Below are positions 3,001-35,729 of a stretch of 37,590 nt of DNA, one piece after another; position 1 is the stretch's first letter, and the number at the start of each line of letters is the position of its first letter. The stretch lies in assembly GCA_031272415.1 (NCBI GenBank), contig JAISTU010000151.1, positions 1 to 37,590 on the forward strand, given 5' to 3'. A model generated the notes under the pieces. It saw only the letters and a program-made list of their open reading frames with translations. It had not been told where the DNA came from and did no database searches. The translations under genes were made by a program, and so were the position numbers. Origin of the DNA: Bacteroidales bacterium (GTDB lineage Bacteria; Bacteroidota; Bacteroidia; Bacteroidales; WCHB1-69).

Positions 3001-6000
3001 AGTATTGCTACCGAGCCCAGCCAAATAGGGGTTGCTTGTGCTGTATAAGTACATGGAATATAGAAATTGTTGTGCCGACAATCCAAAAATCCACTTTGAG
3101 GAGCCGCAAAAACAATGCCTTCACCTCTATATCCTTTTATATAAACCGAATTATGGAAAAAGCGAACAACACCGTCGCTAAAATCAAATCCTATTCCTAT
3201 CCCTGTGCCGGAGGGAGTTAATTTGATTTCATTGTTGGCAACTAATAAGGTATCTGTATAAGTTGCTTTAACGGCAGTAGGTTGTGCAGTCGCAGCAGTA
3301 CCTTGCCATACACGATTGCCGATAATTGAGCCTCTTGTATAACAGCAAAGAATACCTCCCCACGTCTGGTATGGTGCAAAAGTATTACTGCTTTTGATAG
3401 TATTGTAAGATAAACTGCCAAATGTTGCACGATAAATATAAATACCAAAATTATATGAATTGAGAATCGTGTTGGAGTCAATAATCATATAAGACCATGT
3501 ATTGCCTGTGCCTGCATAAAAATCTATCCCTGACGTGTTACCCTCCAACAGATTGTTGATGATAAATATGCTATCCGAAAATGTAGAATTGTCGGGATTT
3601 TTGATACATGCGCCTGATGTTTGCCCACGTGTAGCAGTAGTGGTCAGATTGCCCAAAATATGACAATCTCTTATTGTTACATCTCTGCAAGCATCTTTGA
3701 AGAAAATACCGTTAGAATTGTTATCGCCATCACTGACATCTATAGTTAATGCACTGATACAGAGGTTATTGCTGTTTCGTAACAAAATACCTGTTGTGTA
3801 ATCATGAATTGTTGCACTATCGGCATTATTTGCTTTGGAAGTTAATGTTAACCGATAGCCATTCATATAGTCGGACATATTGGTCATATCTACACTTTCG
3901 TTATACAATCCCGACTGTAATTTTAAAGCAATATCTCCGCTTACACCACAAACTTTAATGGCGGACAAGGCGTTGGCTATGCTTGGAAAATCAGCATTTG
4001 CATTGCCGATGGTGTAATCGCCGTTAAAAGAAGCATTGCAAATATATCCTGTTACAGTAAGAGTGTCATTTTTCAGATTGTCATCTATCTGACCAGATGA
4101 CAATGCACTGATATAGACTTCTATTTTTAGATTTCCTACCACATAATTGATTGTCCCTAAGGTAATTGTATCAAAATTTCCTGCGGGCATGTTTTTGTGT
4201 ACAACTGTTGGTTGAGATACACCATTGATTTTCCAATTGATAACAACAGTATCTAATGTATTGGCACCGTTATTAAATAAAAGTACTCTGACGTTGTCGC
4301 TTTGCCCTACAATGTGTCCGTCTCGCCAATCAATAATACCCACCAATGAGGCATCTGTATTGCTTCCGCTGTGGTAACAGCCTGCATTGGTCATGGCGGC
4401 ACGACTTTTATTTTCTATATCTACCGGAACTTCCGCCAAATAATGATGTATGCGTCCATTCGACTGTAAAACACTGTAATTGGTTAATTTTAAACTATTT
4501 GGCACATCTACAAAAGCAGGCAAAACGCTGTAAGAATTGTGGTCGGTAGGAACAATCGCTTGCCAATCACTTATGGAAGACACTGCCGCCGCTGCATAAC
4601 CTGCATAATTAGGCGAATACAAATTGTTGGCATCTATATCCCACATAGACAAACCTGTCAAACTATTAATATATATCGGATATGCTTGTTCGGACGGTAT
4701 TACAATATTGTTATATTTCACCGTTACAGGATTGGCAATGTTAAATATCCGTATGCCATAACCTAAACTTGAGCCGATATAAATAGAATTGTACAAAACT
4801 TTGACATTGGCATACGAAAGAAGGTCTATCCCTGCCGAACCGCTTGCATTGCTGAAAATAATTTCATTATTGGCAACCAAACCTGTATCAGTACGATTAA
4901 AATAGGATAACCTTAATCCTGTTGGTCCGCCGATAGCAGAGGAACGCTGTTGTATGCGGTTGCCGATAATCCTTCCACTACAATATTCGCTATAAAAACC
5001 AAACCATTGGGTAGTGGTATTCGCAGTACGACTTAAAATAGTATTATAAGACAAACTTGTAAAATCGGTGTATAAACTCAGCAGGCTGTAAAGATAAGCA
5101 TTTGTAATCGTATTGCTATCAATAACAGTACCTCCTGCATAGGCGGTAGTGTTTAATCCTCCTTGAAAATAAATTCCTGAATAACCGCCATCTACAACGT
5201 TGTGAATAATAGATACATTGGTAGCCAATCCTGTTGTTTCTTTGTTAATACCTTTGACAGAGGCTGTTGTTGTTGTCGGATTAACATATATTTTGCAATC
5301 TCTGATTAAAATATTATTGACTGCACCTGTAAAATTTATTCCATATCGGGTAGCGGTACCTGTACTTGCATTGATTGTCAATGCACGGATGGAAATATTA
5401 TCGCTATTTTTGAGTGTAAAGCCGGCACCTGTTGCAGGCAATATTATTACACTGTCAGCATCGTTGGCAGCAGAAATAAAAGTTAATGAATAACCACACA
5501 AATAATCGTTAATATTGGTCAAATCTACATTTTCTGCATACGAGCCGGAGGCTATATTCAAAGTAACATCTCCAATCATTCCGCAGGAAACAATAGCAGC
5601 CAAAGCATCATTGATAGTTGCATAAGTATTCCCCACACCTACGGATACTATTCCACTCAATGGAGTAATACATGTATAAAATGAATCCGAAAGCGTATCA
5701 TCAAAAGAATTATTGTCGGTAAGAGTGCCTCCGATATTGTCAACCCACACTTTAATATCTTGATTACCAGATACATACTGAAATTCTCCAATAATAATCG
5801 TATCATTGCTGCCCACAGGGAGTGTGCCTGTCCATATTTTGTGTGTTTTGATTGTGCCATTGATAGACCAATGAAGTTCTATATCCGTAAGGGTTGTATT
5901 ACCTGTATTGAGAACGACTGCTTTCAGCGTGTCCGTTTGTCCTGCTGCTGTTCCTATTGGTCGCCAGCCGAAAATATAAATCAATGACGCATTTGCACTT

Positions 6001-8597
6001 TGTGCCGCTATATGATAGCACCCTGTTGTTGTTATATTTTGTCGCAAATTGCCGTTTATATCCACAGGAACATCTGCATCTACAGACGCCCAAAAACCGG
6101 TGTAATCAGACTGCTGTAAATCTTGCGAAATATCTATAAACGAAGGCAATAACCTAAAAGATGTCCTATCTGTGGTTATCGTTGACCTGAAACTATAAAA
6201 CGTTGTATGTTCGGTAGTGCTTGTATATCCAATCACCGTAGGAGCATATAAATTGTTATGGTCTATATCATAACCGCTTACACTTGCAGAAATACTTAAC
6301 GGATATGCATATTGCCCCGCCATCACTATATTGTTATATTTGATAACATAACTGTAACCACTGCCAACTACATATATTCCGACAGGGTGATAAGTTGAAA
6401 CAGTCTGTACTCCACGCAAATAAATACTGTTATTTAATATTTTTGCATTAGAATATTGGATAGAAAGTCCATAAGATGTCGCCGTTCCGTAAAGTATCAA
6501 TTCATTATTGGCAATCACAGCCTCAGATACATATCTGTTGTGATATTCTGTATAAATACCTGTCGGTTGCGTAATATTGGTCGTATCCAATTGATAAAAT
6601 CGATTGCCGATGATGTCTCCTACACAAGACGAAAATTGCAATGGTTTCCATGCAGCAGGCGACCCGATAGTACGGCTATAAAAAATATTGCTTGCACAAC
6701 TGCTCAAATTCGTATTGACAAACATAGCACCGCTCTCATAACCTGTATGAATCGTATTGCTGTCAAAAACAATATTTGTGGCTGTGGTACCATCAAAGAA
6801 ATACACAGGAGCATAGCCACCATCAAAAATATTGTGTATCAAAGAAATAGCATTCAAAGACGCAGTTCCCGCTTTAAATACACCTCTTGATTGTGTACTT
6901 GCTCCGCTTGCAGAATTTGCCAATATATGACAATCTCTAACCACAATATCAGAGCATGTACCCTCAAATAAAATCCCCGCATTGTTGACTGCACCGCTAA
7001 CATCTATGGTCAAAAATTTTACTTCAATATTGTTACTATTGTAAAATCTAACTCCTACCACATTGTTGGTCAAAATAACGCTGTCGGCATTGTTAGCAAA
7101 TGAGGTCAAAGTCAATTTGTGTCCCATCATTAATTCAGAAACTCCCTCTAAATCAATACTTTGTGTGTAATTGCCCGATAAAAAATTCAAATTTATATCG
7201 CCTGATATGGTAATATAATTGAGTGTATTTTTAAATTGTTGCCAATTAGAGAAATAGCCGCCTGTTCCAACGGTATAATCTCCACTCAATCCGGTAACAC
7301 TACTATAAACAACAATCTTAATGGTGTCGTCATTTAATACATTGTCGGTTACACTATTAGGCGAACTTACGTAAGCAATAATTGTGTCAAAGTTGTCGGT
7401 TCGAGGCGTATAATTTCCCAAAGTAACGGTATCGCTCAACTCCCACGAGAGATTGTTTGACCAATTGATTTGAGGTTGTGTAACACCATTAACCGTCCAT
7501 TTGATAACGGCAGAGGTCAGATTGGCTAAACCTTTATTGCGTAAAACCACTTTTACAGGAGTAGAAACACCGCTAAAAGTACCTTTAAGAGAAGGTGAAA
7601 CAAAATTTTCCAATGCCACCGAATGCGTATCATAAACGATAGCAGAATTGAGTGCAACAGTATAATTTGCTATCGCTGTAGCCATATTTCCATTGCCATC
7701 TATCCCTGTAACAGAGTAGGATACATTTGTTCCGAGTGCAACTTGTGGCAAAGTGGCTCTCCATAATGTGTCGCCCCCTAAATTGTCCATTAAAACCGAG
7801 TCAATATGTGTAATGCTGTTGTAATCTGTCCTATATTTGAGATAGGGAGGTACAATGGCAGCAACAGTATTGCTTTTCACTTTGGCGGTAACGGCAACAG
7901 TTTTTCCACTATAAACCGTATCTTGCGGAAAGGGAGCAATAAATGCAACTTCCGGCGGCACAATTTCGCCTGTAGAGCAGGTCAATTCAAAATTATCAAT
8001 CAACCAACCGTAATTGATTTGTGTGCCGTTGATAGTTCCACGTTTGAGCCGAAATCGAAATTGAACTGAATTATCATATCCGACCTCGTAACTGACATCA
8101 AAAAACTCACTCTTCCACCACGATTGTTGTGGCATCATAAGGCTGTCCGCAGACTGCCATTCGACGTATGAAGTAGCGTTGAACCCCCTCAAAGCATAAT
8201 TGCTCGCCGAGCCTTTGTAACTGCTTGTCGGCAAGGGTGTCCAATCCGATGTGCTTGACATCTTGTACTCAACCAATATCGAATCCATTTGAGATACTTT
8301 GCATATATGCTTAAATTGCAATGCAACATAAGCAAAGTCGGTCAAATCGTACACAGGTGAGACAAGAATAATCTCGTCTCCGAGTACATTCGGTACTTCA
8401 GCCCAATAAGAATAAGGTGGCGTTGCGTAATAGTTGCCATTTGCCACCCAACTTTGGGCAGGTGATGTTGTAAATGAAACTGTATTACCGTCAAAATTTT
8501 CGGTAAAAGTCGTTCTTGCTACTTGGGCGAAGCCTGTCATAAGGCTCAAAATCATGCCCACTAAAATAATTGCTAAATGTTTACTTTTTTTAAGCAT
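1..8597 (-). CDS. Giant secreted/cell-surface protein, 3'-partial (C-terminus lies beyond the window start). It has a signal peptide, an N-terminal lectin/MAM-like head, then repeated parallel beta-helix (PbH1-like) and CARDB/Ig-like domains. Probably an adhesin and possibly T9SS cargo.
   Basis: Not in the supplied ORF track, which seems to list only ORFs closed inside the window. The minus-strand ATG at 8597-8595 gives MLKKSKHLAIILVGMILSLMTGFAQ (signal peptide). My hand translation stays open for 2865 codons to the window edge. Spot checks of plus-strand triplets starting at positions divisible by 3 found no TTA/CTA/TCA, and no listed minus ORF uses this frame. The protein is N/G/T/S/I/Y-rich, with beta-helix-type repeats (IIGNR, KYNNIV, DIDxNNLY) and CARDB-like segments ending in DNNxxNDT. 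Confidence 0.85.
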   Translation of the reverse strand, partial: MLKKSKHLAIILVGMILSLMTGFAQVARTTFTENFDGNTVSFTTSPAQSWVANGNYYATPPYSYWAEVPNVLGDEIILVSPVYDLTDFAYVALQFKHICKVSQMDSILVEYKMSSTSDWTPLPTSSYKGSASNYALRGFNATSYVEWQSADSLMMPQQSWWKSEFFDVSYEVGYDNSVQFRFRLKRGTINGTQINYGWLIDNFELTCSTGEIVPPEVAFIAPFPQDTVYSGKTVAVTAKVKSNTVAAIVPPYLKYRTDYNSITHIDSVLMDNLGGDTLWRATLPQVALGTNVSYSVTGIDGNGNMATAIANYTVALNSAIVYDTHSVALENFVSPSLKGTFSGVSTPVKVVLRNKGLANLTSAVIKWTVNGVTQPQINWSNNLSWELSDTVTLGNYTPRTDNFDTIIAYVSSPNSVTDNVLNDDTIKIVVYSSVTGLSGDYTVGTGGYFSNWQQFKNTLNYITISGDINLNFLSGNYTQSIDLEGVSELMMGHKLTLTSFANNADSVILTNNVVGVRFYNSNNIEVKFLTIDVSGAVNNAGILFEGTCSDIVVRDCHILANSASGASTQSRGVFKAGTASLNAISLIHNIFDGGYAPVYFFDGTTATNIVFDSNTIHTGYESGAMFVNTNLSSCASNIFYSRTIGSPAAWKPLQFSSCVGDIIGNRFYQLDTTNITQPTGIYTEYHNRYVSEAVIANNELILYGTATSYGLSIQYSNAKILNNSIYLRGVQTVSTYHPVGIYVVGSGYSYVIKYNNIVMAGQYAYPLSISASVSGYDIDHNNLYAPTVIGYTSTTEHTTFYSFRSTITTDRTSFRLLPSFIDISQDLQQSDYTGFWASVDADVPVDINGNLRQNITTTGCYHIAAQSANASLIYIFGWRPIGTAAGQTDTLKAVVLNTGNTTLTDIELHWSINGTIKTHKIWTGTLPVGSNDTIIIGEFQYVSGNQDIKVWVDNIGGTLTDNNSFDDTLSDSFYTCITPLSGIVSVGVGNTYATINDALAAIVSCGMIGDVTLNIASGSYAENVDLTNINDYLCGYSLTFISAANDADSVIILPATGAGFTLKNSDNISIRALTINASTGTATRYGINFTGAVNNILIRDCKIYVNPTTTTASVKGINKETTGLATNVSIIHNVVDGGYSGIYFQGGLNTTAYAGGTVIDSNTITNAYLYSLLSLYTDFTSLSYNTILSRTANTTTQWFGFYSEYCSGRIIGNRIQQRSSAIGGPTGLRLSYFNRTDTGLVANNEIIFSNASGSAGIDLLSYANVKVLYNSIYIGSSLGYGIRIFNIANPVTVKYNNIVIPSEQAYPIYINSLTGLSMWDIDANNLYSPNYAGYAAAAVSSISDWQAIVPTDHNSYSVLPAFVDVPNSLKLTNYSVLQSNGRIHHYLAEVPVDIENKSRAAMTNAGCYHSGSNTDASLVGIIDWRDGHIVGQSDNVRVLLFNNGANTLDTVVINWKINGVSQPTVVHKNMPAGNFDTITLGTINYVVGNLKIEVYISALSSGQIDDNLKNDTLTVTGYICNASFNGDYTIGNANADFPSIANALSAIKVCGVSGDIALKLQSGLYNESVDMTNMSDYMNGYRLTLTSKANNADSATIHDYTTGILLRNSNNLCISALTIDVSDGDNNSNGIFFKDACRDVTIRDCHILGNLTTTATRGQTSGACIKNPDNSTFSDSIFIINNLLEGNTSGIDFYAGTGNTWSYMIIDSNTILNSYNFGIYIYRATFGSLSYNTIKSSNTFAPYQTWGGILCCYTRGSIIGNRVWQGTAATAQPTAVKATYTDTLLVANNEIKLTPSGTGIGIGFDFSDGVVRFFHNSVYIKGYRGEGIVFAAPQSGFLDCRHNNFYIPCTYTAQATPIWLGSVAILSSCIFDYNNLNSTADVGYIGGVHYTSIADWQSVVATDLHSVSILPDFVDTTVNLELANYAGFATPSLAAVPFDMEGNSRSTVTSMGCYHGLNSASGVDVFVADILNWNNLYYNAQSEPIKVIVVNTGTTTVNEITFDWEVNNVAQTPFTWNGTLLSGGVDTITIGGINFVTGNLTLKVNIGSLGILTDNNHLNDTIVKTALVCPSGFSGTYTIGTSGVYATIADAVLALKQCQAVGDVVFELQTGSYTENVNLAFINNVLNGYSLTLTSAATDADSATIICNSGSGITLSYSDNIIIRNITVRLPNTTANTYGINFTGACTNVVVRECKILADTVSTAAIMPIYKASSAGVVSNISFIKNTIRGGTYGFNFAGGTGTLTRGKDIVFDSNTVTHAYSYSVYFTYSDGAVRHNTVLSRTANTTTSWYGLYLGYGLGDIIGNRVQQRSTAITSPTGMYFTSWNTYTTDTPLIINNEVRVRTTGNYQGMNIASAKGKFLFNSIYVEGTTAGNPRGVQIANNAANILIFKYNNIVMTGTGAYPIYLSGITYLGQWDIDDNNMYAPTNVGWAQNAKTSIAAWQTTVTSDKNSVRFLPVFNDVTSSLKMQYDDALICNKDEQVSVDIDAMPRYAKTQLGCYTVELSPSDLMLNDFAEKQAVIHQTFYVKVQAVNMGQTNINSAVFKWSKNGIDQGSSTWTAVPSLGIMEMQDVTVGNFVYDGTPTTIKVWVEMVNGVPETVNWNDTISMTLYASPLAWFTTPFVADTIDNQEFDVYAVIMEGSGALYVNSNPQLQIQSIVGSHVTSTSLPMSFANGKWSVHIPTQYYGSKVIYSLSVSDTVGNSIIITDSTYIRFTEYVIPYNAKNLTITTLDGLSFGNVTCLPDYTALNLKIANTGNQNFDFSQDNLTIHLQVTQPIAMAIDTVIKSGTLNTGNTLNIELSNAFPIMVAGRYDFTIFINIAGDNMLYDDTLLYSYVSGRFGLPIDEDFSNNTMNMVFNSVAEVGN
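750..7290 (-). repeat. Four tandem, diverged coding modules of about 1.63 kb (about 545 aa) inside the giant ORF
   Basis: Module-start motifs recur at about 7290 (SGDYTVGTGGYFSNWQQFKNTL), 5665 (SGIVSVGVGNTYATINDALAAI), 4030 (FNGDYTIGNANADFPSIANALSAI) and 2390 (FSGTYTIGTSGVYATIADAVLAL). Each is followed in the same order by GYxLTxxSxxxDADS, IIGNR, KYNNIV, DIDxNN(L/M)Y, GCYH and a CARDB-like domain. Boundaries are approximate. Confidence 0.7.
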
Positions 8598-8702
8598 CTT
8601 TACAAAATTTATTTATATATTGTTAAAATTAAAATTACAAAACAAAATTCGATTGATTTTTTACACCAACCGAATAGATATATTGAATTGATATACAGAG
8701 AA

Positions 8703-9008: not shown

Positions 9009-9050
9009 TTTTTTATCAAGTTTATAAAATTAAGATTTTTTACTGCTTTA

Positions 9051-9058
9051 CAAAGATA
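9051..9058 (-). promoter_or_regulatory. Bacteroidota-type -7 box (TATCTTTG on the minus strand). It is the only canonical box upstream of the leader ORF and the giant gene.
   Basis: The plus strand reads caaagata inside ctttacaaagatacac, the same core as the other promoter copies in this window. I found no other CAAAnnTA match between 8598 and 9050. Confidence 0.5.
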
Positions 9059-9101
9059 CACAATTTTTTGAGTTAAAAGTTAAAAAATAAAAGTTGGCTT
9101 T

Positions 9102-10361
9102 TTATGCTTCTCTGTCCATTTGAGCGAATAATTTCACAATATTGACAATTGTATGCACGCATTTTTGCATGCTTTCTACTACAATGTATTCATATTTTCC
9201 GTGAAAATTGTGTCCGCCGGTGAAAATGTTAGGGCAAGGTAGCCCCATAAATGAAAGTTTGGCGCCGTCAGTGCCGCCTCTGATAGGAACAATTTTAGGC
9301 TTTACTCCCGCTTGTTGCATCGCTTTTTTTGCTATATCAACAATGAATTGCACAGGCTCTATTTGTGATTTCATGTTAAAATATTGGTCTTTGATTTGGC
9401 ATGAAATCTTATTATTGTATTTTGTATTTAATTGATTAACAATGTTTTGCAATAGTTTTTTTTTCTCTTCAAATTTTTGTTTATCATGTTCTCTGATGAG
9501 ATAGGTCATAGTTGTTTTCTCAACGCTACCTGTAATATTTTCCAAAAAGAAAAAGCCCTGATAATTATCGGTATATTCAGGTTTTTCGGTGGGGGGGAGA
9601 AGTGTCTCCAATTCTATTGCAATTTGTTGAGAATTAAGCATTTTATTTTTTGCTTCGCCCGGATGTATGTTTAATCCTTCGATAACAATATCCGCTTTTG
9701 CTGCATTAAAATTCTCAAACTCCAACTCGCCGATACCACCACCGTCAATAGTGTAGGCATAATTTACTCCAAATGCTTGAATATCAAACAAATCAATTCC
9801 TGTACCAATCTCCTCGTCAGGTGTAAAGGCAATACCGATTTTTCCATGTTTAATTTGAGGATTTTTGAGCAAAATTTCCATCGCAGTCAATATTTCTGCA
9901 ATTCCTGCCTTATCATCTGCTCCTAAAAGAGATGTGCCGTCCGTGTGAATGATTGTATCTCCTTGATATTGAGTTAGTTCTGGAAATTGTTGGGGCGATA
10001 AGACTATGTTTTCTTTTTCATTTAGCACAATATCGCCTCCATTGTAAGGTGAAACAAAACGTGGATGTTCGCAAATGCCTCTAAATGAGGGAGATGTATC
10101 TAAATGGGCAAAAAAACCGACCGCAGGTATATCTTTGTCCGTATTGGCGGGTAAAAAGGCGGTTAAATAGCCATTTTTGTCTGTTTTCACCTCTTTTAGC
10201 CCCATTTTTTGCATCTCTTTTGACAAATATTGTGCAAAAAACAGTTGAGAGCGAGTGCTTGGACGTGTAGCAGTGGTCTCATCAGACTGTGTATCGTATG
10301 CAATGTAAGTTGTAAAACGCTCCAATAATGCGTTTTTGATTTCTATTTCATTGATATTCAT
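9102..10361 (-). CDS. pepT: Peptidase T (tripeptide aminopeptidase, M20B family)
   Basis: 419 aa, collinear with E. coli PepT motifs: HLDTSP, LLGADDKAGIAEI, AFTPDEEIG, YTIDGGGIGELEFENFNAA, PIRGGTDGAKLSFMGLPCPNIFTGGHNFHGKYE. Confidence 0.93.
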   Translation of the reverse strand: MNINEIEIKNALLERFTTYIAYDTQSDETTATRPSTRSQLFFAQYLSKEMQKMGLKEVKTDKNGYLTAFLPANTDKDIPAVGFFAHLDTSPSFRGICEHPRFVSPYNGGDIVLNEKENIVLSPQQFPELTQYQGDTIIHTDGTSLLGADDKAGIAEILTAMEILLKNPQIKHGKIGIAFTPDEEIGTGIDLFDIQAFGVNYAYTIDGGGIGELEFENFNAAKADIVIEGLNIHPGEAKNKMLNSQQIAIELETLLPPTEKPEYTDNYQGFFFLENITGSVEKTTMTYLIREHDKQKFEEKKKLLQNIVNQLNTKYNNKISCQIKDQYFNMKSQIEPVQFIVDIAKKAMQQAGVKPKIVPIRGGTDGAKLSFMGLPCPNIFTGGHNFHGKYEYIVVESMQKCVHTIVNIVKLFAQMDREA

Positions 10362-11674
10362 TGTTTTACAGCAGGACGTGAATGGTCTTTTAATGTTTTG
10401 ATTTTTTGATTATTTTTATACAAAACTTCCAAAATAACTGTTCCATTGGCAGTGTAGTAAGTCCATTTGCCTTCTTTTGAGAGCATTTTGTATTGTCCTT
10501 TTGCTTTGATTTGCTGATTGGAGTAATAATCTATCCATTTTCCGTTCGGCACGTCATCGGTAAATGCTTGTTGGCGGGTGCGACGACCATATTTATCATT
10601 GTAAAAAGTCCACATTCCATTGCGTTTGTTGGCACGATAGTTGCCTTCTTCGAGTGGTTTTCCAAATTCGGAATATTGTGTCCATTTGCCGTCTTTGAGA
10701 CCTGATTTATATTTTCCGCTTTTTTGAATATTACCGCTTTCCCAAAAATATTGTGCAGTCCCATGTTCCATATCATCTTTAAAATCAATGACATATTTCT
10801 TTTGTCCATTAGGATACCAGCCTGTCCATGTTTTGCATCTCAATCCTGCACAAAACCAGCCCTCATCTTCTTTTTTGCCACTTTCATACCACTGCGTCCA
10901 CAGACTATCTTCTTTGTCGTTTTCAAATTTACCCTCCCGTTGTTTTTTGCCCGATTCGTACCATGCTGTCCAGATTCCGCTGCGTTTGTCGTCAACAAAA
11001 TTACCTTTTTTCCAGACCTCTCCACTTTGGTAGAAATATTTCCATTCACCTTGTCGTAATCCTTTGGAAAACAAGCCTTTACTGCCCAACGAAGAGTCTG
11101 AATAATAAAATTTCCATTCACCTTCTTGCAAACCATTGGTCATATTTCCTTCCATTTCAATCGCACCGTTGGCATACCACCATTTTGTAAATCCCTCAAA
11201 TTCACCATCTTTGTAAAAACCTTCGCACATTTTTTGTCCATTGGGGTGATATTCAATGTATTGTCCTTGCAAAACATCAAAAATATATCTGCATTCTTTT
11301 TGCAATTGACCGTTGGAATAATAAAAATTCCATACACTATCTTTTTGATAATCAAGATAATAGCCTGAACTTTCTAAATGACCGTCTTTGTACCACGTTT
11401 TGACAAAACCTGTTTGTGGGTAGCCTTCGGATGCTTTTTGTTCATTTTCGTACCAAGTAGTCCAAAAACCGATTTTGAGTCCTTTTTCATACTCCCCTTC
11501 GGCTTGTTTTTGTCCATTTTTGTAGTAATAAATCCATTTTCCATGAGGTAAATTGTCCGACAATGTACCTTCAAATTTTTTATTCCCATTGGAGTATAAT
11601 TCGGTCAATGGCTGCGCTTTTGTCGCTACAATGCAACAACTTAAAAAACAACAATATATGATTTTTTTATTCAT
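10358..11674 (-). CDS. Secreted MORN-variant repeat protein (YwqK-like repeat family)
   Basis: 438 aa with an N-terminal signal peptide (MNKKIIYCCFLSCCIVATKAQ). It has about 15 tandem repeats of the G.W..(W/Y)Y.NGQK..EG.Y..G...G.W type. Its TGA stop overlaps the pepT ATG (ATGA). Confidence 0.75.
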   Translation of the reverse strand: MNKKIIYCCFLSCCIVATKAQPLTELYSNGNKKFEGTLSDNLPHGKWIYYYKNGQKQAEGEYEKGLKIGFWTTWYENEQKASEGYPQTGFVKTWYKDGHLESSGYYLDYQKDSVWNFYYSNGQLQKECRYIFDVLQGQYIEYHPNGQKMCEGFYKDGEFEGFTKWWYANGAIEMEGNMTNGLQEGEWKFYYSDSSLGSKGLFSKGLRQGEWKYFYQSGEVWKKGNFVDDKRSGIWTAWYESGKKQREGKFENDKEDSLWTQWYESGKKEDEGWFCAGLRCKTWTGWYPNGQKKYVIDFKDDMEHGTAQYFWESGNIQKSGKYKSGLKDGKWTQYSEFGKPLEEGNYRANKRNGMWTFYNDKYGRRTRQQAFTDDVPNGKWIDYYSNQQIKAKGQYKMLSKEGKWTYYTANGTVILEVLYKNNQKIKTLKDHSRPAVKQ

Positions 11675-11747
11675 CTGTTTTGTAAACTTTTAACCCAAAT
11701 AATAAAATATATTTTTTTAACGTACCCGAAAATGAGTACCCATTTTA

Positions 11748-11823
11748 CAAAAATACACCTTTTCTTCAATTAAAAATTAAAAACTTTTTTTTTAGAGTGG
11801 AAAGTGTAGAGATTTTTTTTTGC
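11748..11823 (-). repeat. Promoter-bearing intergenic repeat cassette, copy A (upstream of the MORN gene)
   Basis: -7 box caaaaata at 11748-11755 (minus TATTTTTG), then caattaaaaattaaaaac, a T-run, heptads agagtggaaagtgtagag (11794-11812) and T9-GCATT. Confidence 0.7.
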
Positions 11824-11922
11824 ATTGTCTGAACTATGATTTTGAATGATTTGCGTGATTTATATGATTATTTTAATCCTGTTAATTTTATAAACCTCAT
11901 AAAAAAATCACAGTTCACACAA
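11824..11922. mobile_element. MITE-like element of about 99 bp with terminal inverted repeats ATTGTCTGAACTATGATTT / AAATCACAGTTCACACAA
   Basis: The left end attgtctgaactatgatttt and right end aaaatcacagttcacacaa are imperfect reverse complements. The same element type occurs at 32171-32268 and 26708-26894. It has no coding capacity. Confidence 0.65.
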
Positions 11923-11926
11923 AGAG

Positions 11927-11947
11927 ATTGCGGGCTTTACCCGCAAT
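11927..11947 (-). terminator. Stem-loop downstream of aroA, a candidate intrinsic terminator
   Basis: attgcggg-cttta-cccgcaat is a perfect 8-bp GC-rich stem with a 5-nt loop, 70 nt past the aroA stop. On the minus strand it is followed by ctctttgtg, only a weak U-tract. Confidence 0.45.
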
Positions 11948-15684: not shown

Positions 15685-15708
15685 TCTCCTAAATTATTAA
15701 ATGTTTTA

Positions 15709-15804
15709 CAAAAATACACCTTTTTGTCAATTAAAAATTAAAAAACTTTTTTTTAGAGTGTAGAGTGCAGATTTTTTGCATTTTGGGATAAAAACGTTCT
15801 AAAA
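15709..15804 (-). repeat. Promoter-bearing intergenic repeat cassette, copy B (archetype; upstream of ogt)
   Basis: caaaaata -7 box at 15709-15716, caattaaaaattaaaaaac, T8, heptads agagtgtagagtgcaga (15755-15771), then ttttttgcattttgggataaaaacgttctaaaa. About 85-90 percent identical by eye to the reverse complement of 37386-37494. Confidence 0.75.
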
Positions 15805-15900
15805 TTAAACATTTCTCGTCTGAACCGTACTGTCCGGTCTTAATCTGCAATTTCCACTTTTATACAATGGATTGTTTTTATGGCACTACGATATTATAAT

Positions 15901-15929
15901 GTAAAGACGGTGCATGCACCGTCTCTATA
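15901..15929 (-). terminator. Repeat-borne perfect palindrome GTAAAGACGGTGCATGCACCGTCTCTATA, a candidate terminator of the GH3 operon
   Basis: 15905-15924 agacggtgcatgcaccgtct is a perfect 20-nt palindrome, 35 nt past the nitroreductase stop. A shortened copy, gtaaagacggtgccgtctctata, is at 26767-26789. Confidence 0.5.
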
Positions 15930-15958
15930 TTTTCACTCAATTTTCCACTCTCCACTGA

Positions 15959-19331: not shown

Positions 19332-19385
19332 AGAATCAAAATTCCAACATTTTTGTTTTTAGTACTCTTTTGAATTTGCATTTTG

Positions 19386-19553
19386 CAAAAATACACAAAT
19401 TTTTCAATTAAAAATTAAAAAACCTTTTTTTTCAATTGAGAATGGAGAATTGAGAATGATTTTTTTTGCATTTTGGTGCGAAAATGGGGAAATAAATAGA
19501 AAAATCTAAAATCGTAAATCTACACTCTCCACTCTGAAAAAAAAAGGTTTTTA
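19386..19553 (-). repeat. Promoter cassette copy C plus an inverted partner arm abutting the helicase stop codon
   Basis: -7 box caaaaata at 19386-19393, caattaaaaattaaaaaacc, T8, variant heptads gagaatggagaattgagaatga (19438-19459) and ttttttgcattttgg. The inverted arm tctacactctccactctgaaaaaaaaaggtttttaatt (19519-19553) runs into the TAA of the helicase gene. Confidence 0.7.
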
Positions 19554-20978
19554 ATTAATATTTGTACCTTCTTCTATCCAAAATAATTTTTCTTTGGCAC
19601 GTGTGATGGCGGTATAGAGCCATCTGTAATAATCTTGTTTTATCTCATTTTCAGGTACATAGCCTTTGTCAACGAAGACGGTATCCCAGCCACCGCCCTG
19701 TGTTTTGTGGCAAGTTTGAGCGTATGCAAATTTTACTTGCATGGCGTTCAAATATGGGTCAGTTTTGATTTTTTTAAACCGTTGAGAGCGTGGCACGATG
19801 TCCATATAATCCTTTTCTATTGCAAAAAAGAGTTCTCTCCATTGCTCATAGGGCAAAGCGGGGGTGTCGGTATAAAGCGATGAAAGGATAATTTTTGCCT
19901 CGAAAATTTTCTCTTCTGTGTCCAAAAGTTGCAAAGAAACATCTGCAAAGTCCATATTGTATTTATTTTCAATATCATACACTTTTATAACTTTCAAAAT
20001 ATCGCCATTGGCAATTAAGTCGGCTTGTTTTTTTTCATGGCTTAACCAGTAGTAATTATTTTTTACATTCATCAGTAAATCAGAGTGTTGCAAAATTTCA
20101 TCTCGCCAAAGAATGCGATTACGGATAGCCTGATTGAGCATATTGGCTTGTTTATTGGTGCGAACAATGGCAACTGTATTTTCCATACCTGATTGATTAT
20201 AAGCATTTTCTATTTCTTCCAATATTTCTGAACGGGAAATGATTTTGACATCTGAATTTTCCTTTTGACAATGAATTTGATAATCTTTGTGTGCTCCCGA
20301 TGTCAATAAATGTCTGATTTTTGTTGCATTAAACAGAATATCAGACTGTTGCTGTTGCCGAACAACATCTTTCAATTCACATTCAAAAACCAATTGTGAA
20401 TATCTATCTTTCAACAAAACGGCATCTAAAGCAGGACTTTCATTCAATCCCACCGGTGGCAATTGTGCATTATCGCCTATCAACACTAAACGACAATTGC
20501 TCCCCTGTTCTATGTATTCAAAAAGATGACTTAAAAGATAACTGTCTCTAAACCAATCATTTCCGTTACTTGTTGGGTCATCATACAGCATAGAAGCCTC
20601 ATCTACAAAAAAGAAAGCGTTTTTGTGTTTATTTACATTTTGTTGCAATGTCAGCCCTGCATCTTTGTCCATTTTCATTCTGTAAATTTCTCTGTGGACG
20701 GTAGATGCTTTTTTGGCAGCATAAGCCCCCAGCACTTTTGCGGCTCTACCTGTTGGTGCCAAAAGGACAGTCTCTATTCCACAGGCATTTAAAGCATGTA
20801 CAAAAGCACTGATAAGCGACGTTTTTCCGGTGCCTGCATAGCCTTGCAACAACATCACTTTTTGTTGTTCTTTGCAACAAACAAAGTTCATAAAAGTTGT
20901 TATGGCATTTTTTTGCCCTTCTGTTGGTTCTGTTTGTAAATAATTGATAACCAATTGATTAAAATCTTCTTTTTTCAC
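19551..20978 (-). CDS. RecD/Pif1-like SF1 DNA helicase (AAA_30 + UvrD_C_2 type)
   Basis: 475 aa with Walker A GYAGTGKTS, Walker B FFFVDEASML, VLIGDNAQLPPV, and C-terminal AYAQTCHKTQGGGWDTVFV and YTAITRAKEKL. Confidence 0.8.
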   Translation of the reverse strand: MKKEDFNQLVINYLQTEPTEGQKNAITTFMNFVCCKEQQKVMLLQGYAGTGKTSLISAFVHALNACGIETVLLAPTGRAAKVLGAYAAKKASTVHREIYRMKMDKDAGLTLQQNVNKHKNAFFFVDEASMLYDDPTSNGNDWFRDSYLLSHLFEYIEQGSNCRLVLIGDNAQLPPVGLNESPALDAVLLKDRYSQLVFECELKDVVRQQQQSDILFNATKIRHLLTSGAHKDYQIHCQKENSDVKIISRSEILEEIENAYNQSGMENTVAIVRTNKQANMLNQAIRNRILWRDEILQHSDLLMNVKNNYYWLSHEKKQADLIANGDILKVIKVYDIENKYNMDFADVSLQLLDTEEKIFEAKIILSSLYTDTPALPYEQWRELFFAIEKDYMDIVPRSQRFKKIKTDPYLNAMQVKFAYAQTCHKTQGGGWDTVFVDKGYVPENEIKQDYYRWLYTAITRAKEKLFWIEEGTNIN

Positions 20979-23406: not shown

Positions 23407-23449
23407 TTTTGCAAATTTTTATCTATTGTTTTATATTATAAGTAAAATA

Positions 23450-23545
23450 CAAAAATACACAAATTTATCAATTATCAATTAAAAACTTTTTTTTCAGAGT
23501 GTAGATTTTTTTTTTGCATTTTGGGATAAAATTGTTCTAAAAAAT
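23450..23545 (-). repeat. Promoter-bearing intergenic repeat cassette, copy D (upstream of the Omp28-like gene)
   Basis: -7 box at 23450-23457, caattaaaaac, T8, a short heptad unit cagagtgtaga (23495-23505), then tttttttttgcattttgggataaaattgttctaaaaaa. Confidence 0.7.
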
Positions 23546-26543: not shown

Positions 26544-26567
26544 TTTTTTCCTTTTTTTAGACTATTG

Positions 26568-26707
26568 CAAAAATACACAAAAATTTAATTAAAAAATAAA
26601 AACCTTTTTTTTGCAGAGTGTAGAGTTTTTTTAGAGTGAAGAGTGAAGAGTGCAGAGTGTAGAGATTTTAGATTTAGGATTTTAGATTTTTCTATTTTTT
26701 TTTTGCA
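26568..26707 (-). repeat. Promoter cassette copy E-left with an expanded heptad array
   Basis: -7 box at 26568-26575, then aattaaaaaataaaaacc and T8. Heptads are gcagagtgtagag (26613-26625) and agagtgaagagtgaagagtgcagagtgtagaga (26633-26665). These are followed by the gattttagattt duplication and T10-GCATT. Confidence 0.75.
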
Positions 26708-26894
26708 TTTGTCTGAACCACGATTTTCATAAGATTTATGTGATTGGCAGGATTATTTTATGATTGTAAAGACGGTGCCGTCTCTATAATTCTCTTGTCT
26801 GAACTGTTGTCTGAACTGTAATTTGGAATGATTTTTTTGATTTGTGTGAAATCATAGTAATCATGTTAATCATTCAAAATCAAAGTTCAGACAA
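26708..26894. mobile_element. Compound or nested MITE copy carrying the GTAAAGACGG palindrome remnant and a tandem TTGTCTGAACTG duplication
   Basis: The left TIR is tttgtctgaaccacgatttt and the right TIR is caaagttcagacaag. The internal gtaaagacggtgccgtctctata is at 26767-26789, and ttgtctgaactgttgtctgaactg is at 26795-26818. Confidence 0.6.
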
Positions 26895-26982
26895 GGGGGG
26901 CAAAAATGCAAAAAAAAAATCTCCACTCTACTCTCTACACTCTGAAAAAAGGGTTTTAATTTTTAATTGAATCTCTCCACTC
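26895..26982 (+). repeat. Inverted partner arm of cassette E (no -7 box), abutting the tsaB stop codon
   Basis: ggggggcaaaaatgcaaaaaaaaaatctccactctactctctacactctgaaaaaagggttttaatttttaattgaatctctccactc is the reverse-complement arrangement of the left arm. Confidence 0.7.
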
Positions 26983-27686
26983 TAATTCAGTCCTTTCACT
27001 TTGGGAACTCCTGCGCGAAATGCTTTGAGATAAAAAGGCTCAAAATAGGCTACATCTGCAAAATCTTTGCTAACGTATTGATTATGAACACTTTGCAATA
27101 AATTTCGAGCGGAAATGGGAGCATCGCAAAAAAACGCATTTTGATGTTTTTCATACAAAGGACGCACTTTTGTATTGGCATTGCCACAAAATACAACTTT
27201 CTGATTATTAAGCAATTGTAAATATGTATCATCGGATAAAATTACATTAGTAACATCTTCTTTTTTTTGCAAATTTTGGTCAAAAACAGTTGTATAAACC
27301 TCCATTCGTTTGGCATCTAACATAGATATAAACAATTGAGTATCAGGATATTGTATTTTTGCGGCAGTAGCAATTCCTAACAGAGTATCGGCAGCAATGA
27401 GCGGAATTTGAAGGGCATAACACAAACCTTTGCAGGTAGAAGTACCTATTCGCAAGCCCGTGTAAGACCCCGGACCTTGACTGACGGCAATCGCAGATAA
27501 ATCATTGAGACTTATATTCGCCCCATTAAGAGCCTGTTGTATTAAATCAATCACTTTTTCGGCATGAGAATTTTTGTTGTCATTTTCCACGCAAGATACA
27601 CATTGTCCGTCTTTTCCGATTGCTACTGAACATATTTCGGTAGTTGTTTCCAAAACTAATATTGCACTGTTTTTTGCCACAATCAT
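26982..27686 (-). CDS. tsaB: tRNA t6A37 threonylcarbamoyltransferase complex dimerisation subunit TsaB
   Basis: 234 aa with ILVLETTTEICSVAI at the N-terminus and SQGPGSYTGLRIG, the ASKHA-fold TsaB signature. Confidence 0.85.
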   Translation of the reverse strand: MIVAKNSAILVLETTTEICSVAIGKDGQCVSCVENDNKNSHAEKVIDLIQQALNGANISLNDLSAIAVSQGPGSYTGLRIGTSTCKGLCYALQIPLIAADTLLGIATAAKIQYPDTQLFISMLDAKRMEVYTTVFDQNLQKKEDVTNVILSDDTYLQLLNNQKVVFCGNANTKVRPLYEKHQNAFFCDAPISARNLLQSVHNQYVSKDFADVAYFEPFYLKAFRAGVPKVKGLN

Positions 27687-27731: not shown

Positions 27732-30338
27732 CTATTTTATCAGCGTTTTTATCTCATTTAATTTCATCAATGCTTCAACAGGTGTTAGTGTATTGATGTC
27801 CGTATTAAGAATATCTTCTTTTATTTGTATCAAAACAGGGTCGTCTAAAGTAATGAAACTCAATTGCATAGCCTTATTATTGGCAGTACTTTTTGCCGCA
27901 GAAGAAGTCAATTTTCGGGTCAAAGTTTCATGTTCCGATTTTTCCAATTTAGCCAAAATTTCGTTGGCTCTTTGCAAAACTTCTACCGGCATTCCTGCCA
28001 TGCGTGCAACATGTATCCCAAAACTATGCTCGGTGCCACCTTCTACTAACTTCCTCAAAAACAACACTTTATTGTTAATTTCTTTGACCGTAACATGAAA
28101 ATTTTTGATGCGAGGAAAAGATTTTTCCATTTGATTTAGTTCGTGATAATGAGTTGCAAAAAGCACTTTGGGGCGAAATTGTTTATGTTCATGCAAAAAT
28201 TCGGCAATAGCCCATGCAATAGAAACGCCATCGTAAGTGCTTGTACCTCTGCCTATTTCGTCTAAAAGAATTAAACTGCGAGACGAAATATTGTTCAAAA
28301 TGCTCGCCGTTTCAATCATTTCCACCATAAATGTTGACTCGCCCGAAGAAATATTGTCTGATGCCCCAACGCGGGTAAAAATTTTATCCACAATTCCAAT
28401 CGAAGCCGAATCTGCCGGCACAAAAGAGCCGATTTGAGCCAAAAGTACAATCAGAGCCGTCTGACGCAAAAGAGCAGATTTACCCGACATATTGGGTCCC
28501 GTTATCATCAAAATTTGTTGTGTATCTTTGTCAATATACATGTCGTTGGCGATATATTTTTCCCCCACAGGCAATTGAGTTTCTATCACAGGATGTCGCC
28601 CATTAACAATATCTATCGAATATTCCTCATGAATTTGCGGTCTTACATAATGATTGCTTTGCGCCGTTTGTTGAAAAGAAAGCAATACATCTAATTCTGC
28701 TATTAGTCTGGCATTCAATTGAATAGGTTGTATTTTTGTAGAAACATCGGTCAGCAATTCGCTGTAAATACGCTGCTCTGTTTCAATAATTTTTTCTTCT
28801 GCTCCCAGCACTTTATTTTCATATTCTTTCAACTCTTCGGTAACGTAACGCTCTGCTGTTGTGAGCGTTTGCTTTCGTATCCATGTTGAAGGCACTTTCT
28901 TTTTATGTACATTAGTTACCTCTAAATAATACCCAAAAACGTTGTTATAGCCGATTTTAAGAGAACTGATACCCGTTTTAAGGGCTTCATTGTTCTGCAA
29001 ATCAATCATATAATTTTTGCCGGATTGAGTGATATTTCTTAACTCATCTAATTGAGCATCAACTTTTTGACAAATTACACCTCCTTTTTGCAAATTAGCG
29101 GGCGGGTCATCGACTATTGTTTTATGAATGCGTGTGCTAACCCATTGAGCCTCATCTAATTGTGTTGCAATTTTTGCCAAAGTAGGATTATTGACTTCGC
29201 TCAATGTTTGCTTAATCTCCTTAATGGCATAAAGTGCTTTTTTGAGTTGTACCATTTCCCGCGGATTGGCTCTGGCAACGGCTACTTTTGAAATCAAACG
29301 CTCCAAATCGCCAATAGTTTCAATTTTAACTGCCAACTCATCTGCAACTTCTTGATTTTGAATTAAATAATCTACAACATCATGCCGCTCTGCAATTTGA
29401 TTTTTATCTTTCAAAGGCAAAGAAACCCACCGCCGCATCATGCGTGCCCCCATTGGAGATATGGTTTGGTCAAGCACATCTAAAAGCGTAACTGCATCTT
29501 CATGCGGAGAAGTAAATAATTCCAAATTGCGGATAGTAAATTTATCCAACCAAACGTGCTTATTTTCTTCTATACGCGAAATTTTGGTGATGTGAGATAC
29601 ATTATTATGTTGTGTATCAAATAAATAATGCAAAGCAGCACCGGCGGCTATCAATCCGTTTTCTTGATTCTCAACCCCAAATCCTTTAAAAGATGTTACT
29701 TGAAAATGCTTGAGTAACAAATCATTAGAAAAATCAGATGTAAAAACCCAATCCTCAAATGTAGAGGTAAAAAATTTATCCCCAAAAAGAGTTTTAAACT
29801 CCGATAATTTGTTTTTTTCAACAATCACTTCGGCAGGTGCAAAACTTTGCAACAATTTGTCAACATAATCCGAACTCCCTTCGGCAAGGTAAAATTCCCC
29901 CGTTGAAAGGTCTAAAAATGCCACTCCCAAAATGGATTTGCCTATATGTACGGCGGCTAAAAAATTGTTGGCTTTTGCCTCCAATATTTTGTCATTGTAA
30001 GATACCGCCGGCGTAACCAATTCAGTAACACCACGTTTGACAATCGTTTTTGCCAATTTCGGGTCTTCTAATTGGTCGCAAATGGCTACTTTGTAACCCG
30101 CACGCACTAATTTTGGCAAATAATTATCTAACGCATGATGCGGAAAACCCGCTAACTCACTGCTACTCGACCCGTTATTGCGGTGTGTAAGCACTATGCC
30201 CAATATTTTAGATGTCTTAATCGCATCTTCCCCAAATGTCTCATAAAAATCCCCTATCCGAAACAACAATAACGCATCAGGATATTTCGCCTTAAATGTA
30301 TTATATTGCTTCATCAAAGGAGTATCATTTCCACTCAT
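27732..30338 (-). CDS. mutS: DNA mismatch repair protein MutS
   Basis: 868 aa with [28 protein letters not shown] at the N-terminus, Walker [25 protein letters not shown] and FATHYHEL. Confidence 0.95.
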
Positions 30339-30382
30339 TGAATCCCTTTATATTATGATTTATAATTTATGACTATATTTTG

Positions 30383-30390
30383 CAAAAATA
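30383..30390 (-). promoter_or_regulatory. -7 box (TATTTTTG on the minus strand) upstream of mutS. Only the core is present, not the full cassette.
   Basis: ttttgcaaaaatacacaaattt, 44 nt upstream of the mutS ATG. Confidence 0.55.
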
Positions 30391-30471
30391 CACAAATTTC
30401 GCAAATATTTTATTTTTTTCTATTTTGAGAAAAAAAGATTTTTATGCAAATTTTTACGCTATCTTATTGAT

Positions 30472-31965: not shown

Positions 31966-32020
31966 TTTGTTAATATTACAAATAAAAAACATTTTTACCT
32001 TTTGTCGAAAAATCATTTTG

Positions 32021-32160
32021 CAAAGATACACAAAAAAATGAAAAAAATATTCCCCAAATATAGTGAAAAAAACAAATAATAATAATGATAAATAGGGAGA
32101 AAAGAGTATAGCAGAGTGAAGAGTTTTTTTTTGCATTTTTGGGATAAAAACGTTCTAATA
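32021..32160 (-). repeat. Promoter cassette copy G-left (upstream of ccsA)
   Basis: -7 box caaagata at 32021-32028, heptads agagtatagcagagtgaagag (32103-32123), then ttttttttgcatttttgggataaaaacgttctaataaa. Confidence 0.65.
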
Positions 32161-32170
32161 AATGAAAAAA

Positions 32171-32268
32171 ATTGTCTGAACCACGATTTTCATAAGATTT
32201 ATAAGATTAGCATGATTAAAATAATCATATAAATCATTAAAATCATTCCAAATCACAGTTCAGACAAT
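32171..32268. mobile_element. MITE-like element, 98 bp, TIRs ATTGTCTGAACCACGATTT / AAATCACAGTTCAGACAAT
   Basis: 16 of 19 TIR positions are complementary. The AT-rich interior contains gatt/aatc sub-repeats. It sits between two divergent promoter cassettes. Confidence 0.7.
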
Positions 32269-32277
32269 GCAAAGAAT

Positions 32278-32349
32278 AATTCTCCATTCTTCATTCTCAA
32301 TTAAAAAAAAAGTTTTTTAATTTTTAATCCAAGAAAAAGTGTATCTTTG
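32278..32349 (+). repeat. Promoter cassette copy G-right (drives the plus-strand OMP gene)
   Basis: Variant heptads attctccattcttcattctc, aattaaaaaaaaagttttttaatttttaat, and the -7 box TATCTTTG at 32342-32349. Confidence 0.7.
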
Positions 32350-32354
32350 TAAAT

Positions 32355-35165: not shown

Positions 35166-35729
35166 ATGTATCTATTTCATGTACATATAGTAAGGGTAGT
35201 CGTTTTGATGACTATCCTTACATTTTTTGGAGGCTGTAAAAATGATATTGCAAAAGTTAATTCATTGATAGACAAGCATAAACAGCCATTAGAACAGTCT
35301 TTTAATATGCACCTCTATTACAGTGTAGGAGGCAATATTAAATATGAATTCATTTTCCCCAAAGTGAATAAATATAAAACACCTGAAACTTATCTGGAGT
35401 CGCCCGACGGTTTTGAAATTATAGGTTATGACGAACAGCATGAAAAAGACGTAACTTTGACCGCAAAATATGGTGTCAATTACGAAGACCGCAAACTTAT
35501 GGAGGCAAAAAACAATGTCGTTATCACCAATTTTAAAAAGAATGAAATCATTGAAACAGAGCATCTTGTGTGGGATATGAACAAACATATTATCTATTCC
35601 AATTCACAAATCAAACAAACCAAATCTGACGGCTCTGTTTATCTTGGGCAAGGTTTTGAGTCCGATGAAAATTTACAAAAATACACCATCCTCAAACCCG
35701 AAATTATTATCTATGCAGAAGAGAAATAG
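35166..35729 (+). CDS. lptC: Probable LPS export periplasmic protein LptC
   Basis: 187 aa with a membrane anchor/lipobox (FFGGC). Its size, beta-rich OstA-like patterning and the OMP-TPR-LptC gene order are as seen in Bacteroidota. The call rests on context and general resemblance only. Confidence 0.45.
   Translation: MYLFHVHIVRVVVLMTILTFFGGCKNDIAKVNSLIDKHKQPLEQSFNMHLYYSVGGNIKYEFIFPKVNKYKTPETYLESPDGFEIIGYDEQHEKDVTLTAKYGVNYEDRKLMEAKNNVVITNFKKNEIIETEHLVWDMNKHIIYSNSQIKQTKSDGSVYLGQGFESDENLQKYTILKPEIIIYAEEK

Follow-up and report, generated by a model that had tools for sequence, protein, structure and literature searches.

A probable lineage-specific modular repeat with a predicted promoter heads most transcription units in a genome segment of an uncultured Bacteroidales bacterium

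The window, i.e., the whole stretch of DNA analysed, comprised 37,590 nt (contig JAISTU010000151.1, assembly GCA_031272415.1; G+C about 35%) of the chromosome of an uncultured Bacteroidales bacterium, and the element in question is a cassette of about 100 nt that recurs in its intergenic spacers, the focal copy being the one upstream of ogt. The genes of the window were ordinary housekeeping genes, encoding EPSP synthase (aroA), an FtsX-type permease, Ogt, a nitroreductase, an aminotransferase and a GH3-family protein, and further a helicase, a flippase, an Omp28-like protein, TsaB, MutS, CcsA, a TPR protein and LptC. The closest MutS among 5.8 billion proteins searched was 76% identical and came from metagenome-assembled genomes (MAGs) named "Bacteroidales bacterium", and the closest Ogt was 47% identical; the organism is therefore without a close sequenced relative.

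Transcription units were defined from gene orientation and spacers, which gave 11 units in the window. Eight were headed by a full cassette, two by a core-only copy, and one (36376-37323, minus strand) had no cassette. All eight full cassettes were oriented toward the first gene of their unit. A preliminary description of this DNA had stated that nearly every unit is headed by the cassette; this stood for 8 of 11 units with full copies (10 of 11 with the core-only ones), and did not for the unit lacking it. The eight copies which that description had listed were all found where it had placed them or a few bases away.

In gene orientation, the cassette consisted of an upstream module, (A)ATGC followed by 6-10 A, one to five or more heptads, an A/T block and a -7 segment. 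Two alternatives occurred as the upstream module: module A (TTAGAACGTTTTTATCCC) and the end of a second repeat, S (GTTCAGACAA). The 3' part read A7-9 G1-2 T5-6 AATTTTTAATTGA, then about 7 nt of variable spacer, and then GTGTATYTTTGYAAAAT. The parts were far more frequent in the window than in shuffled sequence: TTGACAAAAAGGTGTATTTTTG with up to 3 mismatches had 3 matches (0 in shuffles), GTGTATYTTTGYAAA with up to 1 mismatch had 11 (shuffle mean 0.10), AAAAAAAGKTTTTN{18,24}GTGTATYTTTG had 7 (0 in shuffles), the double heptad CACTCTNCACTCT with up to 1 mismatch had 12 (0.01 expected), and AAAATGCAAAAAA with up to 1 mismatch had 14 (1.9 in shuffles).

Copies were scored with an nhmmer hidden Markov model (HMM) of the core, with copy I kept outside the training set. 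The focal cassette B (15703-15804, minus strand; 44.7 bits) had module A, AAAATGCAAAAAA, two heptads, A8 G T6 AATTTTTAATTGA and GTGTATTTTTGTAAAA, with a predicted start site at 15703 and the ogt start codon at 15684. Cassette A (11742-11828, minus strand; 39.8 bits), before the MORN/M20 peptidase unit, had an S element in place of module A, two heptads and a predicted 5' untranslated region of about 68 nt. Cassette C (19380-19490, minus strand; 42.8 bits) preceded the GH3/aminotransferase/nitroreductase unit with TNCATTC heptads and a diverged module A. Cassette D (23444-23545, minus strand; 31.6 bits), with module A and a single heptad, preceded the Omp28-like/flippase/helicase unit and began 16 nt past the stop codon of the upstream gene. 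Cassette E (26562-26711, minus strand; 31.2 bits), at the unit of the 170-aa lipoprotein, combined an S half-site, ATGC-A10, AAAATCT-type repeats of 7-8 nt and five or more heptads. Cassette G (32266-32355, plus strand; 41.6 bits), at the OMP/TPR/LptC unit, had TNCATTC heptads and an S element before it, and stood back to back with cassette F. Cassette H (37386-37500, plus strand; 44.7 bits), with module A and four heptads, preceded the gene at the right edge (ATG at 37563). Copy B and the reverse complement of copy H aligned over 71 nt at 85% and over 33 nt at 88% identity, in agreement with an earlier estimate by eye of 85-90%.

Cassette F (32015-32160, minus strand), upstream of ccsA, was a partial case. 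It had been described as a copy like the others, and its module A, ATGC-A9 run, two heptads and -7 box were indeed present; its middle was diverged, without the A8GT6 block, and the HMM matched the -7 part only. The two core-only copies were copy I (9045-9095, minus strand; 26.5 bits), with a degenerate A/T block and GTGTATCTTTGTAAA, which headed the unit of a 101-aa open reading frame (ORF) and a giant protein of the type IX secretion system (T9SS), and copy J (30377-30425, minus strand), with TTTGTGTATTTTTGCAAAAT, which headed the mutS-tsaB unit. The degenerate trace already reported was also recovered (35730-35816; 6.2 bits), with AATTAAAAATT and degenerate heptads around a G+C hairpin; it lay between two convergent 3' ends and headed no gene. 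Short ORFs starting at the ATG of the cassette (MQK...) were rejected as coding, as their frames and lengths varied between copies and they lay upstream of the promoter.

The -7 consensus of the Bacteroidota sigma-A promoter is TAnnTTTG, located at -12 to -5 in Flavobacterium (PMC9723704). The GTGTATYTTTG of the cassette, inside GTGTATYTTTGYAAAAT, matched it exactly and in a fitting position, and TATTTTTG or TATCTTTG was present in all 10 copies. In 10 of the 11 units the -7 box was in gene orientation, with the predicted start 0-68 nt before the first start codon; that the cassette carries a -7 box upstream of genes had been held in the preliminary description. Of 11 near-exact 15-mers, nine stood upstream of a unit's first gene and pointed at it. 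A perfect GTGTATTTTTGTAAA box was also present at 35672-35686 (minus strand), antisense in the 3' end of lptC, and a one-mismatch box at 28520-28534 (plus strand) inside mutS, again antisense to the gene; each may be an antisense promoter or match by chance. The predicted site at which RNA polymerase would start is about 5 nt past the G that ends the -7 box, and similarity among copies ended at about +2 of it. That the core would act as a promoter is well supported by its sequence and its position.

The predicted starts of cassettes F and G fell on in-frame ATGs of ccsA (32016) and of the OMP gene (32355). This coincidence suggests leaderless mRNAs, which both genes may have, and the start of the listed 554-aa ccsA ORF, which falls within the cassette, is probably placed 40 codons too far upstream. 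A scan for sigma-70-type promoters was uninformative (92 sites vs. 78 expected), and copies B and H probably owe their perfect TTGACA to coincidence.

Upstream of the -7 box, a TTG was found at a fixed 11 nt from the TA of the box (-26 to -24), and an A7-9 G1-2 T5-6 AATTTTTAA block occupied about -50 to -27 in seven copies, in fixed register with the box. UP elements of other bacteria, A/T-rich stretches upstream of the -35/-33 region, act at this position and contact the C-terminal domain of the alpha subunit of RNA polymerase. Both position and composition of the A/T block fit an UP element, and because of its position and fixed register the block may act as an UP-like element or as a bent-DNA enhancer.

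Mean pairwise identity among the seven full copies in ungapped windows anchored on the -7 box was 0.78, 0.89, 0.72, 0.70 and 0.87 in consecutive 10-nt bins from about -50 to -1. Among six promoters of a relative (L033, with MutS 76% identical), identity reached 0.81-0.97 in the stretch from about -22 to -2 only and dropped to 0.31-0.41 in the part upstream of it. Conservation of the cassette thus exceeded that of ordinary promoters, as had been claimed, and reached about 80 nt further than in the promoters of relatives. The core HMM gave 31-45 bits for trained copies and 26.5 bits for the untrained copy I, against no more than 11.5 bits for promoters in relatives; it had no match in the relatives L031 and L041.

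Relatives with MutS 75-76% identical had in common with the cassette only about 20 nt around the -7 box, with an extended -7 box TGTAyCTTTGCA in L031, L033 and L041. The cassette itself was not present in these three relatives, and the same repeat search revealed no such families in L031 and L033. As a predicted promoter element, the extended -7 box is a trait of the clade, whereas module A, the heptads and the conserved A/T block are peculiar to this organism among those compared. The cassette as a general promoter of Bacteroidales was rejected on the same grounds. In L033, a perfect 33-nt palindrome of two back-to-back divergent promoters (AAATTAAAAATTGTACCTTTGCAAAAATTTTAT; 4382-4453) indicates that promoters in the clade are highly stereotyped, over a shorter span. 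In L031 (MAG GCA_031553535.1), a 42-nt tandem repeat of about 11 copies (9041-9525) lay just upstream of mutS, spanned by two overlapping hypothetical gene calls.

Both large DNA scans were exact-pattern scans. Across one genome for each of 185,579 species (GTDB representatives) there were 15 single matches to the cassette pattern, and among 241 million JGI metagenome records 14 single matches; heptads and module A were absent from all of these loci. An exact-pattern scan of viral contigs returned single, unrelated matches only, and a blastn search of plasmids one irrelevant A/T-rich match of 54 nt. A single relative at 94.4% nucleotide identity was found (contig L037, JGI 3300005083), which ended at a cassette edge. 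The same organism or near-identical strains were represented in Logan SRR14710912 (contigs L001, L034 and L039, the last with cassette E in full) and in JGI 3300005723 (L035).

Missing from the preliminary description were partial copies of the cassette away from unit starts, the second repeat family, S, and a recurrent hairpin. Copy X (26903-26983, plus strand) was an inverted, promoter-less copy with an ATGC-A10 run, heptads and A6 GGG T4 AATTTTTAATTGAA; it retained all parts up to AATTGAA, had no -7 box, abutted the tsaB stop codon and paired with cassette E across the spacer. Copy Y (19497-19559, plus strand), also inverted and promoter-less, had heptads and A9 GG T5 AATTAAT, overlapped the helicase stop codon and paired with cassette C. 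An inverted heptad run (15932-15957, plus strand) stood directly after the nitroreductase stop codon and paired with the heptads of cassette B. Copies X and Y were 82-93% complementary to promoter-bearing copies, and such spacers become long inverted repeats because the inverted partial copies pair with the downstream cassette. The association with gene 5' ends, on which the preliminary description had relied, held for full copies, which stood at unit starts, and was not exclusive, since inverted partial copies abutted 3' ends.

Cassettes also co-occurred with the palindromic S family, whose members were 88-96 nt long and bounded by TTGTCTGAAC ... GTTCAGACAA. The S element at 32172-32267 (96 nt, with internal 9-nt AAATCATNN repeats) lay between the divergent cassettes F and G; further copies were at 26807-26894 and 11825-11925, and half-sites at 26795-26804, 26709-26718 and 15816-15825. 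S was always in spacers beside cassettes, where it stood either between arms or immediately before the ATGC-A run, and 11812-11905 and 32187-32280 were 86% complementary over 94 nt. S looks more like the transposable elements of the miniature inverted-repeat type (MITEs) than does the cassette itself. A G+C hairpin (AGACGG-loop-CCGTCT) flanked by TATAG and CTTTACA recurred in two spacers (15905-15924 and 26770-26783), and is probably an intrinsic terminator module; other hairpins were at 11927-11947 and near 35755-35775. The spacers of this genome are mosaics of a few reusable modules, and the divergent pair F-S-G (32015-32355) was the most complete mosaic, a palindromic double-promoter unit.

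Heptads were TNCACTC in copies A, B, D, E, F and H and TNCATTC in C and G. They lay upstream of the promoter, at about -51 to -70 and beyond, and formed period-7 arrays in TRF at 26633-26664, 37419-37449, 32279-32302 and 19434-19458. An AAAATCT/AGATTTT tandem repeat with a period of 7-8 nt was also found between the ATGC-A run and the heptads of cassette E (26663-26690) and beside copy Y (19501-19522). The ATGC-A run and the -7 box were 63, 66, 71, 76, 79, 80, 109 or 134 nt apart, with no helical phase. A classical upstream activator site is unlikely because this distance was unphased and module A and S were interchangeable upstream; the option of a common upstream regulator binding site, offered by the preliminary description, is weakened for the same reasons. 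Heptads are probably without a strict positional role; they would be slippage-prone simple repeats making up a variable, unphased spacer between the core and module A or S.

On balance, these results lean toward the cassette being the stereotyped housekeeping (sigma-A type) promoter of the organism, set inside a lineage-specific modular intergenic repeat. The family would have spread, or been kept similar, by duplication, gene conversion or some mobilisation, and not by promoter selection alone. Copying between loci is favoured by the promoter-less copies, by the two heptad subfamilies found at unrelated loci, by the mosaic distribution of variant characters among copies (one or two G, the type of spacer, and whether the -7 box has C or T), by the company of the second repeat, S, and by restriction to one lineage. 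The dispersed promoter-carrying repeat, the other option of the preliminary description, is accordingly a better account than the regulator site: promoter-less copies, heptad subfamilies and absence from relatives speak for it, and the part of it that found no support was Correia-like mobility, as no terminal inverted repeats were found.

Several observations weigh against this combination of a housekeeping promoter and a copied repeat. The canonical -33 TTTG/TTG of the Bacteroidota sigma-A promoter lies about 17-21 nt upstream of the -7 box; no TTG was present at that spacing (about 19 nt) in the cassettes, whose -33 position was a T-run without G. Start sites were predicted from sequence alone, and selection by itself could account for the sharp downstream end of similarity at the start site as well as for the constant register in which the A/T block stands. 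Terminal inverted repeats were not significant in any of the eight copies (left end vs. -7 end, local alignment, 1000 shuffles), and no target-site duplication was evident in the flanks, which were A/T-rich, so that short ones could be hidden. In two strain comparisons heptad number was unchanged, with one single-nucleotide polymorphism in a heptad, and cassettes B, E and G did not differ in length between datasets (strains more than 99.8% identical in both cases). Breaks of short-read contigs at cassettes fit a multi-copy repeat, but the copies in the window alone already explain them. Finally, the sample of the organism was 37.6 kb, so "nearly every unit" is an extrapolation; hunts for other contigs through cluster members and paralogues of the giant protein returned pieces overlapping the window, L037 and unrelated organisms (L036, L038 and L041-L043).

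Pure functional constraint would make the roughly 100 nt a long native promoter, with core, UP element and sites for global factors, selected at each locus without copying. The fixed register between the A/T block and the -7 box and the end of similarity at the predicted start are what it expects, as is the motif-like pattern of a variable TTGA-GTGTA spacer between two conserved flanks; promoters of relatives were stereotyped as well, over about 35-40 nt, the perfect divergent pair of L033 included. It seems unlikely nonetheless, given that well-conserved copies without a -7 box faced gene 3' ends, that the upstream part varied in length without phase (63 to 134 nt) and had two alternative modules, and that heptad subfamilies were common to unrelated loci. 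Copy F had no A/T block, copies I and J had no heptads, and the cassette was absent from every relative and every scanned genome.

A stronger version of the copied-promoter reading can be formulated, in which one self-propagating or self-homogenising module has replaced almost all native promoters genome-wide, so that promoters would evolve in concert, and heptad arrays and inverted promoter-less partners set the boundaries of every transcription unit, for instance as sites for a dedicated factor or as insulating stem-loops. It is put forward as a speculative proposal that is probably wrong as a whole.

Quite improbable is that the cassette is a MITE of the CREE type (Correia repeat enclosed element), mobilised by a transposase and carrying outward promoters, that colonised the spacers. 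Copies were small, intergenic and dense, with the promoter at one end, and the arm pairs formed inverted repeats across spacers; CREE offers a precedent, as it has inverted repeats, gives rise to promoters at either of its ends and is present in more than 100-250 copies (PMC2649163). A single cassette, however, lacked significant terminal inverted repeats and visible target-site duplications, the paired arms enclosed differing contents (S elements, hairpins, module A), arm Y and its partner C belonged to different heptad subfamilies, and no transposase gene was present within the window. A random inserter would also not be expected at almost every unit start in the correct orientation. Terminal inverted repeats had been suspected by eye, the reverse complement of the left end (ATGC-A run plus first heptad), GTGTAGATTTTTTGCAT, resembling the -7 box; the candidate was dropped, as its alignment was no better than in shuffles.

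In an element acting mainly at the RNA level, the inverted arms would form long stem-loops in read-through transcripts, and these would serve to terminate, insulate or stabilise the mRNA upstream of them, as in repetitive extragenic palindromes (REP), bacterial interspersed mosaic elements (BIMEs) or BOX, with the promoter being incidental. Whole-spacer RNA folds were far more stable than shuffles (z = -4.45 for Y/C, -4.75 for the heptad run/B and -9.9 for X/E), the inverted arms began at stop codons, and the Y/C stem was maintained through G-U pairs on the transcribed strand only. Any inverted repeat automatically gives negative z-scores, however, stems were A-U rich, and no Rfam match was found over the whole window, at gathering thresholds or at E ≤ 1. 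Because only three of the seven co-directional spacers had a left arm, and because the central G+C hairpins, as terminators, would stop transcription before the right arm, an RNA role is at best secondary; as an explanation of the family it is very unlikely, and a function of the paired arms as read-through insulators or 3' stem-loops is possible but secondary.

An assembly or chimera artefact, to which the breaks of short-read contigs inside cassettes and an N-gap in one scaffold might point, has a negligible chance of being the explanation, since cassettes B, E and G with their unique flanks were recovered at 99.5-100% identity in three independent datasets. Short-read contigs or scaffolds L001, L034, L035, L037 and L039 ended, or had an N-gap, inside or exactly at cassette edges (window positions 19413, 32280, 26707, 23513 and 26562; N-gap after 15723). 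The repeats break assemblies at operon boundaries, and the cassette explains the fragmentation of short-read assemblies there in this organism.

The cassette is a member of no named repeat family. BIMEs and REP of enterobacteria are G+C-rich palindromes at 3' ends and have no promoter; BIMEs and the spacers of the window are alike in being mosaics of a few motifs in alternating orientation. CREE/NEMIS of Neisseria (PMC2649163) are, like the cassette, small and abundant intergenic repeats, restricted to a genus or lineage, from which neighbouring genes obtain promoters and whose inverted repeats can form hairpins in transcripts. They have 26-bp terminal inverted repeats, TA insertion, an IHF site and fixed length classes, and occur in about 120-250 copies at some genes only (PMC2649163). 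In the cassette no terminal repeats or target duplication were found; it was directional, ended at the predicted start site, had a variable heptad array and a -7 box of the Bacteroidota type, and headed 8-10 of the 11 sampled units.

BOX of Streptococcus pneumoniae (boxA-(boxB)n-boxC; PMC3049150) is also built of a tandem array that varies in copy number and is enclosed by fixed modules at its ends, a match in architecture with no similarity in sequence. BOX is intergenic, clusters with other repeat families and can modulate downstream expression, as the cassette is predicted to do; unlike the cassette, it has a boxB much longer than the 7-nt unit, terminal inverted repeats and target duplications, and it is usually co-transcribed rather than being the promoter (PMC3049150). 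The BrickBuilt MITE of Porphyromonas gingivalis (PMC4596501), likewise from Bacteroidales, is a strictly intergenic, species-restricted leader, tandem array and tail, and its segments have promoter activity, as predicted for the cassette. It differs from the cassette in its 23-nt unit (up to 22.8 copies), its small inverted-repeat ends, its 19 copies per 2.3 Mb and its bidirectional promoter activity, and it does not head most operons (PMC4596501).

TAACTGA heptamer repeats (PMC4679880) resemble the heptads in being 7-nt tandem units, in sets of 2-6 copies, with strand orientation relative to the downstream gene. Some TAACTGA sets are reversed right after stop codons, and such repeats occur in some Bacteroidetes (PMC4679880, citing Mrazek 2007). 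These sets are found no more than a few nt away from start codons, with a translational role proposed (PMC4679880), whereas the heptads of the cassette lay upstream of the promoter and were part of a larger conserved cassette. The heptads do qualify as long simple sequence repeats, being non-coding tandem arrays with a unit of 5-11 nt in excess over chance.

Where dispersed repeats are known to carry promoters (Correia, BrickBuilt, BOX), they are found at a minority of genes, whereas in this window a single module appears to serve as promoter for nearly every sampled operon, those with the housekeeping genes aroA, mutS, ccsA and lptC included. Should the same hold for the whole genome, this would be a case in nature of promoter architecture made nearly uniform by copying and not by independent selection. 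It bears on the origin and homogenisation of promoters, on how far bacterial regulation can be "one promoter fits all", and on the trust to be placed in promoter predictors for non-model Bacteroidota. The cassette would also be a compact modular promoter part, with a core, an A/T block and a tunable spacer.

At the left edge of the window, the giant ORF (3-8612, minus strand) encoded a beta-helix protein of the T9SS, longer than 2870 aa, which extends past the edge, and contained three internal repeats of about 1640 nt each. No Pfam family was found in it with hmmscan, and its homologues (identity up to 42%) were T9SS-sorted parallel beta-helix giants of Bacteroidales MAGs. In an unrelated Bacteroidales contig with 53% G+C (L026, JGI Ga0310697_10005440), which was among the matches to the cassette pattern, long 7-nt and 9-nt tandem arrays filled the spacers (4353-4437, 6779-6842, 8295-8390 and 11163-11297), with units CTAAACTTA, CTTGAAA, TTTGGCT and TTGAACT. 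One array was directly upstream of an A8GT6 ... GTGTATTTTTG promoter, and some others began at stop codons. Short tandem repeats in spacers thus recur in uncultured Bacteroidales with lineage-specific units, in line with what has been published on heptamer repeats and long simple sequence repeats (PMC4679880).

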